Sequence record: NC_019423.1
Source: Escherichia phage IME11
Length of the DNA: 64,000 bases
Strand: one strand, 5' to 3'
Shown here: positions 4,824 through 43,959 of the stretch, piece by piece
Layout of the letters: each line of letters opens with the position of its first letter
How positions within the stretch are numbered: the stretch's first letter is position 1
Translations under genes and position numbers: made by a program
The notes under the pieces: model-generated
What the model saw: only the letters and a program-made list of their open reading frames with translations
Database searches by the model: none
What the model was told of the DNA's origin: nothing

Positions 4824-6776
4824 ATGCCGATTACATGGAGAAATGTTGATGCACCTAACTTCTCTGGGGTAGGTGACAGCATTCGCACATTTGGTAGCAT
4901 GATTGGTAACGCCACCTCCGGCTTAAGTGATGCACTGGGTAATTTCCAGAACGCTGCCAAGCAGGAGGCTGGCAATGCCGTCATGATGAATGCTATGCAG
5001 TACCAAGACCCAACTGAGTATCGTAATGCTTTGGCATCTGGTGCACTGTTTCAGGGGGTCGATCCTTCTCTGGTAAACCAGCGTACTCTCCAGAATCTGG
5101 ATGAGCGAGCAGGTACATTACTGACTCAACAAGGTCAACAGGGAACCAATGACTACAATGCTTATCGTTTTGGTCGTTTACAGAATACTGACTCTGCATT
5201 AGATAATGCTTCTCCTGCTATTCGTTTATTGTCTGAGGCTTATCAGTCTGGTGACCAGAACCGTATTAATGCTGCATTAGGTCAGACTCGTGAGGCACTA
5301 TCTGCACTCCCTGCTGACCAACAACTGGATATGTTGGGTAGTCTTCAGGGTCAAGGTGGTCAGGCTATTAACCAAGCACAGAACCGTTTTGATTTGGGTG
5401 TGGCTCAACGTAATGATGCTGATAGTCAGGCAGCTATGGGTGTAATGTCACAGATTACCCGTGGTGCTGAGAACCCTAATGATGCACGTCTGTTGGCAGA
5501 GGCATATAGCAAGAACTTGTCTCCAGTTGCTCAGGCACGTTTGCAGGGATTACTGGCTAGTGCTTATCCTGGTGTATATGGTAATGGTGTAGGTGCTGCA
5601 TCTGCTCCGGGTACTGCCGGTACTCGTCAGGGTTCCCCATATGATGTTACTTACCAGTTTGCTGGTACTTCCACTCCTATTACTCAAATGAGTATTGGTG
5701 ATGTAATCAAGCACCAGGATGGTATGAAGACGAACCAAGGTGCTTCACCTGTTGGTGCATTCCAGATTAACCAAGCTACCTTGAAAGACTTTGCTCCCAA
5801 AGTTCTCGGTTCAGATTGGCAAAGCCAGCCTCTTTCTGCTGAGAACCAGGATAAGATTGGTAAGGCTATCTTCGAACAGCGTAAGAATGGCAACCTTAAG
5901 GATACTTGGGCTGCACTTCCTAATGCTGGTGTTGGTGCATATAAGGATATGACCTGGGAAGAGATTAAACCAATTATTGCACAGGCAGAAGTTGGTGCTA
6001 ATCCGTTAGCTATGCGTCAAACTGCACAGGGTAACCAAGCTGTATCTACCTTGGCTCAGGGTATGATTGGTACTCGTTCTATGCAGGATAACACCGGTAG
6101 TCTTAATACCGACTTCCTTGGTACTGTCACTGATAATACCCCGGTAGGTGAGATTGCTAATCGACTGTTGGAAGGTGACTTTAAAGGTGCTGACCGTAAC
6201 TGGGTACTGAACCGACTAACTGATATTTCTCAACGTGGGAATATGTCACCAGCTATGGCTGCTGCTGTTATGCAACGTGCACAGACTGGCGTACCGGAAG
6301 GTTACATTAGCCGTGCTATTGATGCGGTTAACCCATTCATTACCAATGAAGCTGGTAATGGTATGCGTCTTAATGACCGTCAGGTAGAGCAGTTAATTGA
6401 GGGTGTACGTCGAGGCGAACCACTGGAAGGTAGTGTACGTAACCTGAGTCGTGCTCAGGCAGCACAGAACATTCAGGCAGCACAGACTGCTTATGATGCT
6501 GCTGTAGCTGCACTGATGAATACCCAGAACAAGATTAACACTGGACAAAGTGGTCTTACTGCATTGTTACCTGCACGACAGGAAGCTGTTACTAAAGCTG
6601 CTGCAATGCTACAAGCTGCTCAAGGACAAGTACAAGCAGACCCGGCTAACCTGGCTCCAAGAGGTTTCCAGTCACAGGCTAGTGTGGACAGAGCGCGAGC
6701 CAAGGAAGATGAAGAGCGTGCTGCTCGATACTTACGTCAGGCACAAGGTTTGCCTGAGTATATGCAACCTCGTTAA
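4824..6776 (+). CDS. putative virion protein with possible lytic-transglycosylase-like segment
   Basis: 650-aa ORF directly upstream of vRNAP; segment GAFQINQ...WAALPNAGVG weakly resembles SLT-domain motifs; strong terminator downstream. Confidence 0.5.
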   Translation: MPITWRNVDAPNFSGVGDSIRTFGSMIGNATSGLSDALGNFQNAAKQEAGNAVMMNAMQYQDPTEYRNALASGALFQGVDPSLVNQRTLQNLDERAGTLLTQQGQQGTNDYNAYRFGRLQNTDSALDNASPAIRLLSEAYQSGDQNRINAALGQTREALSALPADQQLDMLGSLQGQGGQAINQAQNRFDLGVAQRNDADSQAAMGVMSQITRGAENPNDARLLAEAYSKNLSPVAQARLQGLLASAYPGVYGNGVGAASAPGTAGTRQGSPYDVTYQFAGTSTPITQMSIGDVIKHQDGMKTNQGASPVGAFQINQATLKDFAPKVLGSDWQSQPLSAENQDKIGKAIFEQRKNGNLKDTWAALPNAGVGAYKDMTWEEIKPIIAQAEVGANPLAMRQTAQGNQAVSTLAQGMIGTRSMQDNTGSLNTDFLGTVTDNTPVGEIANRLLEGDFKGADRNWVLNRLTDISQRGNMSPAMAAAVMQRAQTGVPEGYISRAIDAVNPFITNEAGNGMRLNDRQVEQLIEGVRRGEPLEGSVRNLSRAQAAQNIQAAQTAYDAAVAALMNTQNKINTGQSGLTALLPARQEAVTKAAAMLQAAQGQVQADPANLAPRGFQSQASVDRARAKEDEERAARYLRQAQGLPEYMQPR

Positions 6777-37781: not shown

Positions 37782-38030
37782 TTACATTAGAACTTGTTTA
37801 CATTTATCAAAAATAGCCTTACGAAGTTCAGCTTCTTCCCGTGGTTCATCATTGGGATGGTGACCCACTGGACTATTTTGAAAAGCATTCATTAGGAATA
37901 AGACCTGATACTCGGTTAATCCATTAATCTGAATGCTATACGTTTTCTCTGAGGCGATATTTACATTAGCCATTACGTTTACCTGCCATTGCTTGCAATA
38001 CAAACACAGCCATATCTGATGCCATGTCAT
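37782..38030 (-). CDS. hypothetical protein
   Basis: 82-aa ORF, overlaps neighbour. Confidence 0.35.
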   Translation of the reverse strand: MTWHQIWLCLYCKQWQVNVMANVNIASEKTYSIQINGLTEYQVLFLMNAFQNSPVGHHPNDEPREEAELRKAIFDKCKQVLM

Positions 38031-38557: not shown

Positions 38558-38797
38558 TTACTTACTATTTTCTTCAATGAAGCGTCTCATACGTTCCTTT
38601 GCTTCATCATGTTCACGAATTGCTTCATAATCACGAGCAAAGTAGTAAATGCACCACAAACCAATTTCACTTACAAAGAGCAGAATGCTGGCTCGAATGA
38701 ACTGCATATCTGTTTCTAATACAAAGGCTACTTTGTATGCGAAGATTAGTGTGAGTAAGGCACTAGTTAGCATTGTGTACAGAGCTAGTTTTTTCAT
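38558..38797 (-). CDS. small membrane protein
   Basis: 79 aa with two predicted hydrophobic helices. Confidence 0.45.
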   Translation of the reverse strand: MKKLALYTMLTSALLTLIFAYKVAFVLETDMQFIRASILLFVSEIGLWCIYYFARDYEAIREHDEAKERMRRFIEENSK

Positions 38798-39738
38798 TCA
38801 GTAATAGTCTCACCGGGGATTAACTTACGGAATTGGATAAAGTGAAGCAGGTTACCTGAATACAGATTCCCTTCTTTATCCATGGATGTAACACCTTGTT
38901 CCCAGGTAACTGGGTTCATGTTATTCACGTACTTCTCACCAAGGTTCATAGGCGTAGCTTGATGTTCCGTTGGAGAAGCATGAATAGGTTGGTTTTCCAC
39001 TAACTTAGCGAACAAGCCGAGGTCTTCTTCGATAGTAGAAGGGCGTCCTTCAAAGTTGTTATAGGAAGCTCGTGCACAACGTGCAGCACTCACTTTGAGA
39101 AGTAATCCATACATTTCTGCAATACTTGGTTCATCGCGTGTAACTCGATTACGTTTGCAGAAATTATAAGCCCCAACACGGTCACTATGAGTAATATATG
39201 GCAGATGCCAATGTCCATGCGATAGTGTTTTTGGTGAACTCTCTTCTTGTGCCTTACGCATTGCTTGAGCCAGTTCACGAATTTCTGGTTGTGCATCTTT
39301 GTGGTCACGCAGTCCATAGAAGTTAGCCCAGCTTGTTGAAGTTACCACTACACGGATATGTGTGAATGGTTCCAGAATACGGTTAACAATCTGCTTATGT
39401 ACTTGCCCACGACGCAACATTTCAGCATAGGTGGCAACACTGGATGCAGCCTGTTCCCAGATAAAAATTGCATCACTGCGTTGGTCTTCTGATAGCTCTT
39501 CAAATGCTTGCATACCTTTCTGGTTCTTACCCCAGTGACTTGGCATCACTGGTTCATTACGAACTTGTTCGATGAACTTAGCAGTGGGGATAGCACGACT
39601 ACTTGAAGCATTACGGTTGAATACACGGTGGGTCATAAACTCACTGTGAATGAATCGGGGATAAACCAATTCAAAGGTTGTGATACGAGTTCCTGTTTCT
39701 GGATGAACGGAATCTGCAATTACTGATGCCTTAATCAT
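38794..39738 (-). CDS. thyX: ThyX-like flavin-dependent thymidylate synthase (putative, motif variant)
   Basis: 314 aa; segment FMTHRVFNRNASSSRAIP resembles the ThyX RHR-x7-S signature but with THR in place of RHR. Confidence 0.45.
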   Translation of the reverse strand: MIKASVIADSVHPETGTRITTFELVYPRFIHSEFMTHRVFNRNASSSRAIPTAKFIEQVRNEPVMPSHWGKNQKGMQAFEELSEDQRSDAIFIWEQAASSVATYAEMLRRGQVHKQIVNRILEPFTHIRVVVTSTSWANFYGLRDHKDAQPEIRELAQAMRKAQEESSPKTLSHGHWHLPYITHSDRVGAYNFCKRNRVTRDEPSIAEMYGLLLKVSAARCARASYNNFEGRPSTIEEDLGLFAKLVENQPIHASPTEHQATPMNLGEKYVNNMNPVTWEQGVTSMDKEGNLYSGNLLHFIQFRKLIPGETITE

Positions 39739-40181
39739 TAGAATGACCTTAGATAGTTGGTGATACCACTTCTCGTCTCTGTGATTCTCTTAACCTGAAC
39801 GTATACCAGCTTAAACTCACTACGAGGTAGTTCTTGTAATACTGCTACACCTTCAGTAAGGGCCACAGAACACGCTACAGCGGTTTCTTCTTTAAAGGAG
39901 TACAAGTCTTCATACATGAGGGCTTCATACTCTTTACGGAGCATACAGAGAGCAACTCTTGCCTTATCACTTACTTCTTGTGAACCAGCAGACATAGCTA
40001 AGCTGTATATGATAAAGACTTGTTCAAAAACAAAGTCCAGTAATCTATCAGGGGTATTAGTACCCATGAATAATTTTGTTGTATAGGAACGAGCTTTACG
40101 GTTGAGTTCATACTCATCCTCTATGCCTTTATTATAAAGAACAGGATTTCGTTCCCTTTTTCTTAGGAATGGGATACGCAT
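39738..40181 (-). CDS. hypothetical protein
   Basis: 147-aa ORF with ATGA coupling. Confidence 0.45.
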   Translation of the reverse strand: MRIPFLRKRERNPVLYNKGIEDEYELNRKARSYTTKLFMGTNTPDRLLDFVFEQVFIIYSLAMSAGSQEVSDKARVALCMLRKEYEALMYEDLYSFKEETAVACSVALTEGVAVLQELPRSEFKLVYVQVKRITETRSGITNYLRSF

Positions 40182-40567
40182 TAGTATTTACTACCTCTTC
40201 TATACCAGGGGTAGTGGTGAGTAGTACTCTTACCCTTGAACAAGTCACGAGTAATGGGATTCTTTCGTAACTGCTCCAGGTATAGGTACATGTGACCTTC
40301 TCCTGGATATGCCCAGAACTTATCTATGATATGGTCTACCTTAGATTTCAGATGCGGTTCTGGGGGAATGTATGAGGTGGTATTAAAAGGTCTTCCAGTA
40401 GTCCATCCTTTCTGAACAAGAACCTGCATTGTTGTATAAAGATCTAATTCACTTTCATTCTCTACTTGGTCATGAATAGTTTTACCCAAAGTAAGCATTG
40501 CAGTTTGTTCCAGCTTACTTAAGTCCAGCCCATACAAGATAGACTTACCATTTCGTCTGTTTGACAT
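40181..40567 (-). CDS. hypothetical protein
   Basis: 128-aa ORF. Confidence 0.45.
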   Translation of the reverse strand: MSNRRNGKSILYGLDLSKLEQTAMLTLGKTIHDQVENESELDLYTTMQVLVQKGWTTGRPFNTTSYIPPEPHLKSKVDHIIDKFWAYPGEGHMYLYLEQLRKNPITRDLFKGKSTTHHYPWYRRGSKY

Positions 40568-40682: not shown

Positions 40683-40925
40683 TTACTCTGCTTTACTGCC
40701 ACCATTGGTTTGAACAACAGTTACATTTGTAACCTGGTTCTGACCTTTGTTGGACAGTGCCCAAATAAGTGCTACTACCCAGAAGACTAAAGACCAGCCT
40801 AATACGATATTAAGCACACCAATGCCCCACTTAGAGGCATGGCCTCGTGTAAAAGCGATGATAGTAGGGATAAGGTATACAGCTAATACAAATAACAGAA
40901 CAAGGATTGCTGCTAAAGATTCCAT
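40683..40925 (-). CDS. superinfection immunity (Imm)-like membrane protein
   Basis: ATG at 40925 with AGGAA RBS (track start 40961 is GTG); two TM helices; YLIPTIIAFTRGH...NIVLGWSLVFWVVALIWAL resembles the Imm family. Confidence 0.5.
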   Translation of the reverse strand: MESLAAILVLLFVLAVYLIPTIIAFTRGHASKWGIGVLNIVLGWSLVFWVVALIWALSNKGQNQVTNVTVVQTNGGSKAE

Positions 40926-40998
40926 GATGGTTCCTATGTAGGGTTGAGTTAGTTTCTTCACAAATAGCCCAACTATGCTGGGCTATTTAGGCAGCTAC

Positions 40999-41208
40999 TT
41001 ACTCAGAGTCTTTGCTTGCAGGTGTAAGAGCTTTCTTCAGGTAATTGCGTACTGAACGATAGGTTTCTTTGGTTTCTATATAGTTATTATCTACAAATAT
41101 GACGCGTGCATGGTCAGACTGTGGAATCTGTTCTACTGCAATTACATTTGCAGCATTAATGGTTAAGCGTACATCTGAGGTTGCATGAGTTACTTGAAAT
41201 ACTGACAT
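40999..41208 (-). CDS. hypothetical protein
   Basis: 69-aa ORF. Confidence 0.4.
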   Translation of the reverse strand: MSVFQVTHATSDVRLTINAANVIAVEQIPQSDHARVIFVDNNYIETKETYRSVRNYLKKALTPASKDSE

Positions 41209-41217
41209 GAGTTTTCC

Positions 41218-41724
41218 TTATTTACTGCTTCTTGCAGCTACTGGTTTGTTTTCCTGGTTCTGATACTTGCCATTGTAATTAGCAGGTTCCTGAACCAGAT
41301 GAAATAATACTTGAGCTATCCCAGAACCAGCCGGGATATGCAGTTTTTTACGACCATGATAGACCAATTCGAGGGTAAGATACCCTTTCCATCCTGGTTC
41401 GATTACTGTATTAAATACGGATAATGCACGTCTTGCCCATGTAGACTTGTCGTGAACGATAGCCACACAGGATGGTGACATGTTGAACTTCTCAATTGCT
41501 GAAGCCAATGCGAATTTACCGAGATGGCGTGATACTTGATCTCCATCAACGACCTTCACCATTGGAATCAACCCAAATAAGCAATAGAAGGTAATATCTT
41601 GTTTGATGCGAATATCATAACCAGCTTCACCTAATCCATAGCTTACACCATGTTCGGATACCTTACGGTCTGGTACATCCAGCAACTGAGATGAACGATA
41701 TAGAGAATTACCATTAACAACCAT
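41218..41724 (-). CDS. dcd: dCTP deaminase (dUTPase superfamily)
   Basis: 168 aa; VSYGLGEAGYDIRI, VIEPGWKGYLTLEL and IPAGSGIAQVLFH fit Dcd-family motifs. Confidence 0.65.
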   Translation of the reverse strand: MVVNGNSLYRSSQLLDVPDRKVSEHGVSYGLGEAGYDIRIKQDITFYCLFGLIPMVKVVDGDQVSRHLGKFALASAIEKFNMSPSCVAIVHDKSTWARRALSVFNTVIEPGWKGYLTLELVYHGRKKLHIPAGSGIAQVLFHLVQEPANYNGKYQNQENKPVAARSSK

Positions 41725-42899
41725 TATTTCATTCCTTTAGGGATATGAACTACCTCCCCAAAAGGTACGGTAGCATTGGGATTATTCAGAACACACCAGA
41801 TGATAGGGATATCAAATGGTAATTCTTCCATTGGACGAACATACATATCAGAGAATATGATTGCAGCGGTTGGCTTATTCTTAATAATCCAATCTCGTAC
41901 TGGTTCAAGGTTTGTACCACCACGGCCTGTAATCTTAATCTCTTCGAAAGTATCTTCTTCAGTGATGTCTATTTCTTCCTGAATAATATCGTCGAAGGTA
42001 ATTAAGGACATCTTCTTAGGATTAAACTGGCTCTTAACATAGGCAACCTCTGAGTTAAAACGCAGAGAGTCAGCACTACTAATAGAACCAGATACATCCT
42101 CAAAGTAGGCTAAGTGTCGTAAGCGTCCTTCATCATCTTCCAGGGAAGGTAGATAAATGTCAAAGAAACGACGGTTAGGTCTGGCCCACGTATAATGTGT
42201 GTCATCAATGTCGGTAAAGAAGTTCATCAGAACTTCCTGCCAGGGAACCACTGGTTTAAGGAATTGGGTAATAACCTCTTCCATGCGACCAGCACCTTTA
42301 CCGGGCATTGTTCCACCAGCCATCTTCTGGCTCTGCATTGCACGTACTACGTTGTTGACAACAGCACCCTGGGACTGCCCCGAAGAGGGAGCTTTCATGT
42401 CGCCAGCAAGACCTGCTCCAGCACCCCCAGACGGCTTCTGCCTTTTCTGAGGGTTCTTCATCAGGTCATCGTAGATGTCTTCTTCGACCCATCCTTTATA
42501 TTGAGGGTCTTTGCAAATACCTTTATCAATGCCAGTGAACTTATAACCATCTTCCTCTAACTGAAGGTTAATGAAGTGATCACATGCCTGGTTCCAGACT
42601 TCCGGGTCACGGCTTCCACAACGGATGCCATGTAGATATGCTACATGCCAGAGTTCGTGCATTAACACTGTTTCCCTTGCATCTGGGCACATCCAGATAA
42701 AGAAATCTGGGTTGAAATGGAGTTCTATCCCATCAGTACATGCAGTGGGACAATCCTCACGTTTCCATGAGAACTTAAGACTACACAGCAATGAACCAAA
42801 AAACGCTGCACTGCGTCCTAGGAAAGCGTTGGCCTGAATACGGTCATACTCACGCAAGAGTTGTTCATCACTAAGTGTGTGCTGAGGTATCTGGTTCAT
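41724..42899 (-). CDS. VWA-domain protein with N-terminal HExxH metallopeptidase-like domain (DUF2201-type)
   Basis: ATG at 42899 lies 8 nt after the AAA gene stop (track ORF extends to 42983). HExxH in VLMHELWHVAYLHG; MIDAS-like DxSGS in YFEDVSGSIS. Confidence 0.6.
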   Translation of the reverse strand: MNQIPQHTLSDEQLLREYDRIQANAFLGRSAAFFGSLLCSLKFSWKREDCPTACTDGIELHFNPDFFIWMCPDARETVLMHELWHVAYLHGIRCGSRDPEVWNQACDHFINLQLEEDGYKFTGIDKGICKDPQYKGWVEEDIYDDLMKNPQKRQKPSGGAGAGLAGDMKAPSSGQSQGAVVNNVVRAMQSQKMAGGTMPGKGAGRMEEVITQFLKPVVPWQEVLMNFFTDIDDTHYTWARPNRRFFDIYLPSLEDDEGRLRHLAYFEDVSGSISSADSLRFNSEVAYVKSQFNPKKMSLITFDDIIQEEIDITEEDTFEEIKITGRGGTNLEPVRDWIIKNKPTAAIIFSDMYVRPMEELPFDIPIIWCVLNNPNATVPFGEVVHIPKGMK

Positions 42900-42906
42900 A
42901 GTGTGA

Positions 42907-43959
42907 TTACCCGTGAATGTAACGAGAGATATTAGCAGCAGCCTTACGCCATTCAGGAGTAGCCTGAAGATCTGGTAATGCATTGCCTACTGTACGGAAG
43001 TACAGAATCTTATGGGTGAATGTTTTAAAGCGTTCAATATACTGAAGAACATCAGCAAAGTTTTCTTCAGTAGTTTTGTTAGCCAGATGGTTAACGGTAG
43101 CCCAGCACAGGTTGTTATCTTCCGGTAGTGCACAGCCCATAGGGTCTTTAACTACCTTCTCAATCGTAATCATACGATTGTACACCTGAGTAAACTGAAC
43201 AAATTCTGTAGCTTTACCAGCAGTAACGTGACCTGCATAGTAGATAGAATCTTCATCAGGCAGAGCACCTTCTGGCAGGTTCTTGAGGTCTTTGTTAACA
43301 AAGTCCCAAGTACGAGGACAACAGAACGTTTTGTTTTTATGAGCAGGGTCGAAGTCATGTAGATAACCAGGGTTAGCATGTAAGAATGCAACCAGACGTT
43401 CATCCCATTGCTGAGGAACCATTACGTCTTCAACAAAGATGTCGAAGTTAAGTTCCATTTCAAAGTGAACCACACGAGACTGCATTGCAGTACCTAGTGG
43501 GTTAACAATGGCACGGTCGGTAGCTTTGTTACCAGCACATACAATCATCACATTAGGATGAAGTTTTTTCTGACCTGTCATACGGTCCAGAATCAGTTTG
43601 TATGCAGCAGCTACTACTTCTTTCTTAGCTGAGTTGAACTCATCAAGGAATAAGAGCCAGCCATTATACCCTTCTGGTAATTCATCCCCCTCAATAGGAA
43701 ATAAGTCAGCGAATGGGATAAATTCTGCACGGTCACCATTACGAAATGGTAAGCCAGAAAGGTCTTCCGGGGCAGAAGTAGACAGACGGTGGTCTATCAG
43801 CTTCATACCAAATTCTTCTGCAACAGAACGAATAATTGCAGATTTACCCATGCCCGGTGATGAAGTCAGGAACGGTACGTTACCTGCTCTAAGGGCACGG
43901 ATAATAAAGTTACGAGCTTGACGTGTATTACATACGGTCAAGGAGTCAATGCTTGCCAT
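42907..43959 (-). CDS. MoxR-like AAA+ ATPase
   Basis: 350 aa; Walker A SPGMGKSA, Walker B LLFLDEFN, sensor-like VCAGN; immediately upstream of the VWA partner. Confidence 0.7.
   Translation of the reverse strand: MASIDSLTVCNTRQARNFIIRALRAGNVPFLTSSPGMGKSAIIRSVAEEFGMKLIDHRLSTSAPEDLSGLPFRNGDRAEFIPFADLFPIEGDELPEGYNGWLLFLDEFNSAKKEVVAAAYKLILDRMTGQKKLHPNVMIVCAGNKATDRAIVNPLGTAMQSRVVHFEMELNFDIFVEDVMVPQQWDERLVAFLHANPGYLHDFDPAHKNKTFCCPRTWDFVNKDLKNLPEGALPDEDSIYYAGHVTAGKATEFVQFTQVYNRMITIEKVVKDPMGCALPEDNNLCWATVNHLANKTTEENFADVLQYIERFKTFTHKILYFRTVGNALPDLQATPEWRKAAANISRYIHG

Follow-up and report, generated by a model that had tools for sequence, protein, structure and literature searches.

Gene Organization at the Locus

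The window, meaning the whole stretch of 64,000 nucleotides of Escherichia phage IME11 DNA analysed here (NC_019423.1), comes from a G7C/Bp4-type N4-like coliphage (Gamaleyavirus), has a GC content of 43.1% and shares 97.5% nucleotide identity with phage 24-32N between positions 38000 and 41000. This region carries a complete gene of the ThyX family (Table 1), whose 314-aa product is 100% identical to YP_006990647.1 (Escherichia phage IME11, "FAD-dependent thymidylate synthase") and 99.7% identical to its counterpart in phage 24-32N. The start codon of this gene shares the sequence TAATG with the stop codon of the upstream gene, and its stop codon shares ATGA with the next start, which places it within a tightly packed same-strand block. 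Since these overlaps occur at both ends and the same Met is used as start by the homologues, the limits of the ORF are sound.

A gene of the dCTP deaminase/dUTPase superfamily was found 1.5 kb upstream of the ThyX gene on the same strand, and it likely supplies dUMP or dUTP to the ThyX pathway. The proximity of both genes was also considered as a general rule for the ThyX proteins described below, and it was rejected, since phmmer recovered a dCTP deaminase beside them in only 3 of 80 genome loci. The window was devoid of ORFs resembling ThyA (sought by phmmer at E≤10 with an E. coli ThyA query), FolA or canonical ThyX. Neither a further thymidylate synthase nor a DHFR, a ribonucleotide reductase or thymidine-hypermodification genes are listed in the full annotation of phage 24-32N.

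Other minus-strand genes of this region were also inspected. Between the dCTP deaminase-like and ThyX genes, positions 40683-40961 encode a membrane protein of 92 aa, in which a superinfection-immunity domain was recognised (PF14373, 1.1e-16). The ORFs at 40181-40567 and 40999-41208 are named "shikimate kinase" and "flagellar and swarming motility protein" in 24-32N, labels that look unsupported, as neither had a Pfam match at E≤0.01. Directly upstream of the dCTP deaminase-like gene, positions 41724-43959 harbor an AAA-type ATPase gene (42907-43959) and a gene for a DUF2201 putative metallopeptidase/VWA-like protein (41724-42983), which overlap by 77 nt.

Table 1. Features of the IME11 ThyX gene and its product, with the associated and homologous features considered in the text (residue numbers after the equals sign are those of T. 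maritima ThyX).
Feature	Position	Strand	Details
ThyX-family CDS, complete	38794..39738	minus	ATG start, 314 aa + TGA stop; from the ORF list
Start of the N-terminal beta-hairpin (first strand and turn), aa 1-18	39685..39738	minus	Predicted strands E3-11 and E18-27
ThyX core, aa 19-170 (= 63-199)	39229..39684	minus	R120 (=R147), T135 (=R165), N139 (=N169), R144 (=R174)
Variant signature, aa 36-48	39595..39633	minus	THRVFNRNASSSR; T36=R78, H37=H79, R38=R80, N43=N85, S46=S88, R48=R90
Clade-specific linker, aa 171-216	39091..39228	minus	Invariant W177-H178-x-P180
Putative relocated module (helix-loop-helix-short helix), aa 217-261 (= 22-61)	38956..39090	minus	S225 (=S30)
HASPTEH motif, aa 253-259	38962..38982	minus	H253-A-S-P-T-E-H259 = H53-E-T-P-F-E-H59; canonical HxxPxEH
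Clade-specific C-terminal tail, aa 262-314	38797..38955	minus	Conserved Q302 and R304
dCTP deaminase/dUTPase-superfamily gene	41218..41724	minus	Pfam DCD 6.1e-16, dUTPase 1.2e-5; "dCTP deaminase dUTPase" in 24-32N
Intein site A (relatives)	THRxF|SRNASSSR, in the signature motif		P0144, P0151, P0175
Intein site B (relatives)	YPRFIH|S/C-EFMTHR, in the helix preceding the signature		P0169, P0238
Intein site C (relatives)	KPAH|SSPFEH, within the putatively relocated His motif		P0218, P0243, P0269
Calothrix sp. NIES-2100 locus (AP018178.1)	L030:4407-6798		DCD-like gene, canonical-type thyX in two ORFs (5084-5623, 5679-5900), then a rearranged-type ThyX reading T-Y-R

Assignment to the ThyX Family

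The IME11 protein matched the Pfam Thy1 family (PF02511) with 52.1 bits (gathering score of 24.8; E 8.9e-14), covering positions 60-190 of the 191-position profile, and PHROG 85 ("thymidylate synthase") in a full-length match from aa 2 to 313 (E 2.6e-114). The TIGR02170 equivalog model was matched over profile positions 61-207 with 57.2 bits, below its cut-off of 87.9. The best phmmer match in the PDB was a canonical ThyX (E 0.0035), and Pfam and NCBIfam searches revealed no similarity to ThyA-type thymidylate synthases or to dUMP or dCMP hydroxymethylases. Moreover, an AlphaFold2 model obtained from a 31-sequence alignment (pLDDT of 87.7 and pTM of 0.87) was compared by Foldseek and all of its top matches were ThyX proteins, with query-normalised TM-scores of 0.34-0.41, which are low because sequence-order matching was possible for only about half of the chain. 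A comparison with BFVD added nothing to this picture. These profile searches, together with the predicted structure, show that the protein belongs to the ThyX family and has a ThyX fold, so that the HMM search and the structure prediction suggested in the initial annotation both gave the outcome expected for a ThyX-like protein.

That annotation had also drawn attention to a signature with HR-x7-SS-R in the place of RHR-x7-S, THR replacing RHR, and to a length beyond that of typical ThyX proteins, and both descriptions proved accurate. The residues 36-48 (THRVFNRNASSSR) correspond to T36-H37-R38, seven residues, and S46-S47-R48, and the 314 aa of the protein compare with 191-270 aa in the solved ThyX chains and 196-255 aa in 120 close homologues of the T. 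maritima enzyme. Compared with the canonical signature R-H-R-x7-S, the IME11 version T-H-R-x7-S-S-R preserves the H, R and S residues. The variant motif and the extra length are traits of a whole clade and not private to the IME11 gene.

A Probable Rearrangement of the Chain Order

Canonical ThyX enzymes are homotetramers with bound FAD and active sites built from three subunits, which carry out the NADPH- and CH2-THF-dependent methylation of dUMP. The IME11 protein has a homologous core with these enzymes (T. maritima TM0449, PBCV-1 A674R, and those of M. tuberculosis and H. pylori; PF02511, TIGR02170); however, both differ in the location of an active-site module, which in canonical ThyX precedes the RHR helix, inserted between strands 1 and 2, and in IME11 follows the core. 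In the AlphaFold2 model, no helix separates the first two strands of the IME11 protein, this hairpin runs directly into the THR-bearing helix, and the two helices and the His motif of canonical ThyX are absent from the N-terminus. On the other side of the core, the residues 206-263 were predicted to form a helix, a 9-residue loop, a helix, a short helix and a strand (helices at 206-226, 236-248 and 255-259), a layout that agrees with the helix 1/folate loop/helix 2/helix 3 arrangement of T. maritima ThyX. This segment of the phage protein, SAARCARASY...EEDLGLFAKLV...HASPTEH, also resembles the T. maritima SAVRAARVSF...DRHLIEYLM...HETPFEH, the module and the canonical proteins sharing the motifs S-x-x-R-x-A-R-x-S-Y/F and H-x-S/T-P-x-E-H.

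The homology of this module was detected only by profile-profile comparison and grafting, which were the only approaches sensitive enough; the C-terminal 147 aa used alone in single-sequence searches had no match in Pfam or the PDB, and a 21-sequence profile of the C-terminal part had no match in the PDB. A profile of the C-terminal part of the clade (aa 171-314, 156 sequences) was compared by hhalign with that of 120 canonical ThyX sequences, using a T. maritima reference sequence identical to PDB 1kq4 in 219 of 220 residues. The residues 217-261 aligned with T. maritima 22-61 (Prob 96.2, E 2.5e-9, score 59.4), compared with Prob 94.6, E 6.8e-8 and a score of 54.1 for the core (aa 21-169 with T. 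maritima 63-199), and a weaker version with fewer sequences still yielded an E of 0.0016 for the module. In the grafting assay, the residues 205-259 were placed in silico ahead of residue 19, and reversed and shuffled grafts served as controls. The Pfam Thy1 score rose from 49.9 to 64.2 bits and the coverage was extended from profile 60-190 to 13-190, with the controls remaining at 49.9, and the TIGR02170 score rose from 52.7 to 69.9 bits with coverage of 18-205 (controls, 54.3 and 52.6), a value that still did not reach the equivalog cut-off of 87.9.

On the basis of these profile comparisons and of the predicted model, it is very probable that the chain order was rearranged and that the canonical N-terminal active-site module now lies C-terminal to the core. 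The relocated module accounts for part of the additional C-terminal length, which is not a simple extension. About 95 further residues, distributed between the linker (aa 171-216) and the tail (aa 262-314), have no counterpart in canonical ThyX. In hhalign comparisons, no similarity to the canonical profile was found for aa 1-20, the linker region (aa 168-216) or the tail, and the rearrangement is therefore described as circular-permutation-like. The tail, which is partly missing in the shorter cyanobacterial members, was also considered as the helix remnant of a second copy that would supply the missing Q75/R78 through its F-I-Q302-F-R304-K segment, an idea left unsupported by the empty hhalign result against the canonical profile. 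As the canonical module reaches the active site of another subunit in the tetramer, this trans arrangement may permit a change in its point of covalent attachment.

Conserved and Replaced Active-Site Residues

The conservation of the clade was evaluated in an alignment of the IME11 protein with 156 diverse members (n=157). Around 25 positions, including every nucleotide-binding residue, were near-invariant across members sharing ≤50% identity. The Thr of the variant signature was found in 150 of the 157 sequences and replaced by Arg in only one, three of the seven exceptions being alignment artefacts at intein junctions, and the remaining signature residues were preserved to a similar extent (H37 in 156, R38 in 147, S46 in 155, R48 in 156 and A49 in 155). 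The same was observed in the core and module, where R120, R144 and S225 were present in all 157 sequences, H253 in 156, and E258 and H259 in 152 each, and among the clade-specific positions H178 (157), P180 (157) and R304 (156).

The residues kept relative to T. maritima ThyX comprise H79 (H37), R80 (R38), N85 (N43), S88 (S46), R90 (R48), R147 (R120), N169 (N139) and R174 (R144) in the core, and S30 (S225), H53 (H253), T55 (S255), E58 (E258) and H59 (H259) in the module. Several of these residues have assigned roles in published work on canonical enzymes: R174 acts in dUMP activation, S30 forms a hydrogen bond with the flavin O4, and H53, which is donated by a different monomer and kept in place by N85 and Y91, forms stacking contacts with the flavin or folate. 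Otherwise, three positions are replaced, R78 by T36, Y91 by A49 (155/157) and R165 by T135 (147/157); in the case of A49, the active-site loop is also shortened and no conserved Tyr lies in its vicinity. R78 faces the flavin N1/C2=O in the T. maritima enzyme and has been described only as a conserved arginine, and S88 and Y91 have been called strictly conserved and critical, mutants of Y91 being 100- to 1000-fold slower. It was also reported that the first Arg of RHR forms a hydrogen bond with the isoalloxazine and that S71 and R190 of the M. tuberculosis enzyme bind the FAD phosphates; these two residues would correspond by alignment to T. maritima T55 and R165. As judged from these alignments, conservation extends over the side that binds the substrate and the one that stacks on folate and flavin, and the differences are systematic at three flavin-side or catalytic positions, for which K115, H114, R28, H178, Y226 and R304 are candidates for compensation.

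Distribution of the Clade and Intein Insertions

When 1.84 billion representative proteins were scanned, the matches formed at least 5,263 clusters (50% identity) at E≤1e-3 and 2,844 at E≤1e-30. They belong essentially to a single clade, since the distance to canonical ThyX proteins prevents these from reaching such E-values; even in the PDB, a 10,000-fold smaller database, the best match with a canonical ThyX gave the E of 0.0035 mentioned above. By tblastn, 1,032 phage records were found to encode a ThyX of this clade, including N4-like phages, 86-94 kb Pseudomonas phages, Vibrio ICP1, 130-150 kb enterobacterial myophages and Caulobacter phages. The contig JANQNF010000027.1 ("MAG: archaeon isolate PL23a_bin.95", 69,347 bp) encodes an 83% identical ThyX and a protein with a 358-bit match to the dCTP deaminase-like product of the window, and it looks like the entire genome of a Gamaleyavirus-like coliphage that was assigned to an archaeal MAG during binning.

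The clade is also present in bacterial genomes (at least 382 loci). The complete chromosome of Pseudanabaena minima carries a 275-aa homologue placed among cbiC, precorrin methylase, GAF-domain, recO, MFS transporter and malic-enzyme genes, with no phage genes, and this synteny is maintained among close relatives. The corresponding 90% cluster contains 206 members on 4-5 Mb contigs, under the RefSeq name FAD-dependent thymidylate synthase. The nearest relatives outside Pseudanabaena are metagenomic proteins (P0471, P0456, P0490, P0517 and others) with 62-78% identity, several of them on 50-125 kb contigs, which probably belong to phages, maybe cyanophages; a phage-to-host transfer would fit the presence of the gene in Pseudanabaena. 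In Calothrix sp. NIES-2100 a canonical-type and a rearranged-type ThyX adjoin each other, the only case among 80 genome loci, and the flanking ORFs had no Pfam matches. This side-by-side pair is a small warning that argues against assuming strict redundancy of the two ThyX types.

All the long members of the clade (549-654 aa) owe their size to intein insertions with HNH or LAGLIDADG endonucleases. Domain fusions had been sought as functional hints and were ruled out, since every long member proved to be an intein insertion. The inteins occupy three sites inside conserved motifs, which may be taken, from their sequence positions, as independent signs of an essential catalytic role.

Proposed Function and Alternative Explanations

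On the evidence of sequence profiles and of the structural model, the IME11 gene most likely encodes a functional flavin-dependent thymidylate synthase of a large, distinct and rearranged ThyX clade, although the subthreshold TIGR02170 score and the absence of equivalents of R78, Y91 and R165 count against this interpretation. The catalytic activity, cofactor and oligomeric state of the protein are predicted from canonical ThyX. The overall reaction would convert dUMP, with CH2-THF and NADPH, to dTMP; S46, R48 and R120 would hold dUMP and R144 would activate it, H253, positioned by N43, would sandwich the flavin and folate, and S225 would contact the flavin O4. The roles of R78 (flavin N1/C2=O), Y91 (proposed general acid) and R165 (FAD phosphates) would be either filled by clade-specific invariant residues or performed differently. 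Together with the nearby dCTP deaminase-like gene, this enzyme would allow the conversion of host dCTP to dTTP for an AT-richer genome, and a DHFR would not be needed. No member of the clade with a biochemical or genetic test or a solved structure was found.

The initial annotation had offered two possibilities, a divergent thymidylate synthase or a related enzyme producing a modified pyrimidine. An altered chemistry or substrate, such as a non-reductive hydroxymethylation of dUMP or the methylation of another pyrimidine, leading to a modified pyrimidine or other product, would be in line with the clade-wide change of R78/Y91/R165 to Thr/Ala/Thr, two of these three positions being catalytic, and with the TIGR02170 score under the equivalog threshold. 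Moreover, the ThyX paralogue PolB shows that a change of substrate is possible on the ThyX fold, and the Calothrix locus pairs a canonical-type thyX with a rearranged gene. However, the clade leaves the uracil-activating R144 (=R174) unchanged, together with S46, R48 and R120, which bind the phosphate; it also retains the His module that stacks on folate and flavin, and the annotation of 24-32N contains no kinase, transferase or other hypermodification genes. Likewise, the DNA of N4-like Pectobacterium phages with a thymidylate synthase (of unspecified type) is cut by BamHI and ClaI, the Pseudanabaena homologue lies in a housekeeping chromosomal setting, and more than 1,000 phage records carry the clade, from many phage groups that are not known for thymine replacement. 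A changed chemistry is consequently considered improbable; the divergent thymidylate synthase is the better supported of the two proposals and the modified-pyrimidine enzyme gained no positive support, given the kept uracil- and phosphate-binding residues and the lack of hypermodification genes. If the flavin chemistry were nevertheless altered, for example by a different flavin or binding mode, by a non-reductive transfer yielding 5-hydroxymethyl-dUMP or by the use of another pyrimidine substrate, many common phages (N4-like, ICP1, rV5-like, PAK_P1-like) would make an unrecognised nucleotide.

Two other explanations dispense with either the rearrangement or the activity. The protein might be an ordinary ThyX whose signature carries a point change and whose C-terminal extension is an unrelated accessory domain, as the empty single-sequence (Pfam, PDB) and 21-sequence profile (PDB) searches and the matching of the core only by sequential structure aligners would suggest. 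Such an extension would leave unexplained why the N-terminal 60 positions of Thy1 and TIGR02170 are unmatched and the model presents a bare hairpin there, why the extension profile aligns with canonical residues 22-61 with a better E-value (2.5e-9) than the core itself, and why grafting adds 14-17 bits and scrambled controls bring no improvement, with agreeing motifs on both sides; it is highly improbable. The loss of the R78, Y91 and R165 equivalents could also indicate a catalytically dead relic with a structural or regulatory role, a proposal that is hardly credible against the roughly 25 near-invariant positions with all the nucleotide-binding residues, the intein homing sites in three conserved motifs and the thousands of clusters. 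A functional, rearranged thymidylate synthase is thus the preferred reading.

Relation to Known ThyX Proteins and Biological Meaning

The gene and its family were already annotated, and as a phage gene it has an ordinary nucleotide-supply function. The proteins of G7C/Bp4/ECBP1-type Gamaleyavirus phages and of PHROG 85 are near-identical and annotated as (FAD-dependent) thymidylate synthase, and phage papers treat the gene of this clade as an ordinary thyX. These annotations rest on domain similarity and mention neither the rearrangement nor the missing residues, and a literature search on circular permutation or rearranged chain order of ThyX, on clade-wide loss of R78/Y91/R165 and on functional work returned only routine annotations. 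The automated annotation of the clade is inconsistent because the curated equivalog model TIGR02170 misses it, its members scoring below the cut-off. In a survey of jumbo phages, the classical thymidylate synthase and ThyX were anticorrelated.

PolB, the UMP/dUMP C5-methylase of polyoxin biosynthesis (PDB 4p5a), retains the canonical chain order, unlike the IME11 protein, and is no closer to it than true ThyX enzymes are. A work of Liu & Yang from 2004 is said to report a cyanobacterial (Trichodesmium) ThyX with an intein and "distinctive ThyX motifs", and it may perhaps already describe the rearranged clade. The likeness lies in that the clade is also cyanobacterial and often bears inteins in its motifs; the membership of the Trichodesmium protein is a lead only, and a search from the Pseudanabaena ThyX returned no Trichodesmium sequence.

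Phage groups that have been well studied carry the clade, which is also found, apparently as a chromosomal gene, in Pseudanabaena. ThyX serves as a target for antibacterial drugs and its mechanism is under revision, and in current models Tyr91 and Arg78 are essential. A natural clade of thousands of members that lacks both residues and keeps all of its substrate-binding residues under strong selection provides a ready-made test of these mechanism models. Moreover, its very probable rearrangement shows that the folate/flavin module of ThyX, which acts in trans, tolerates being joined to the opposite end of the chain.
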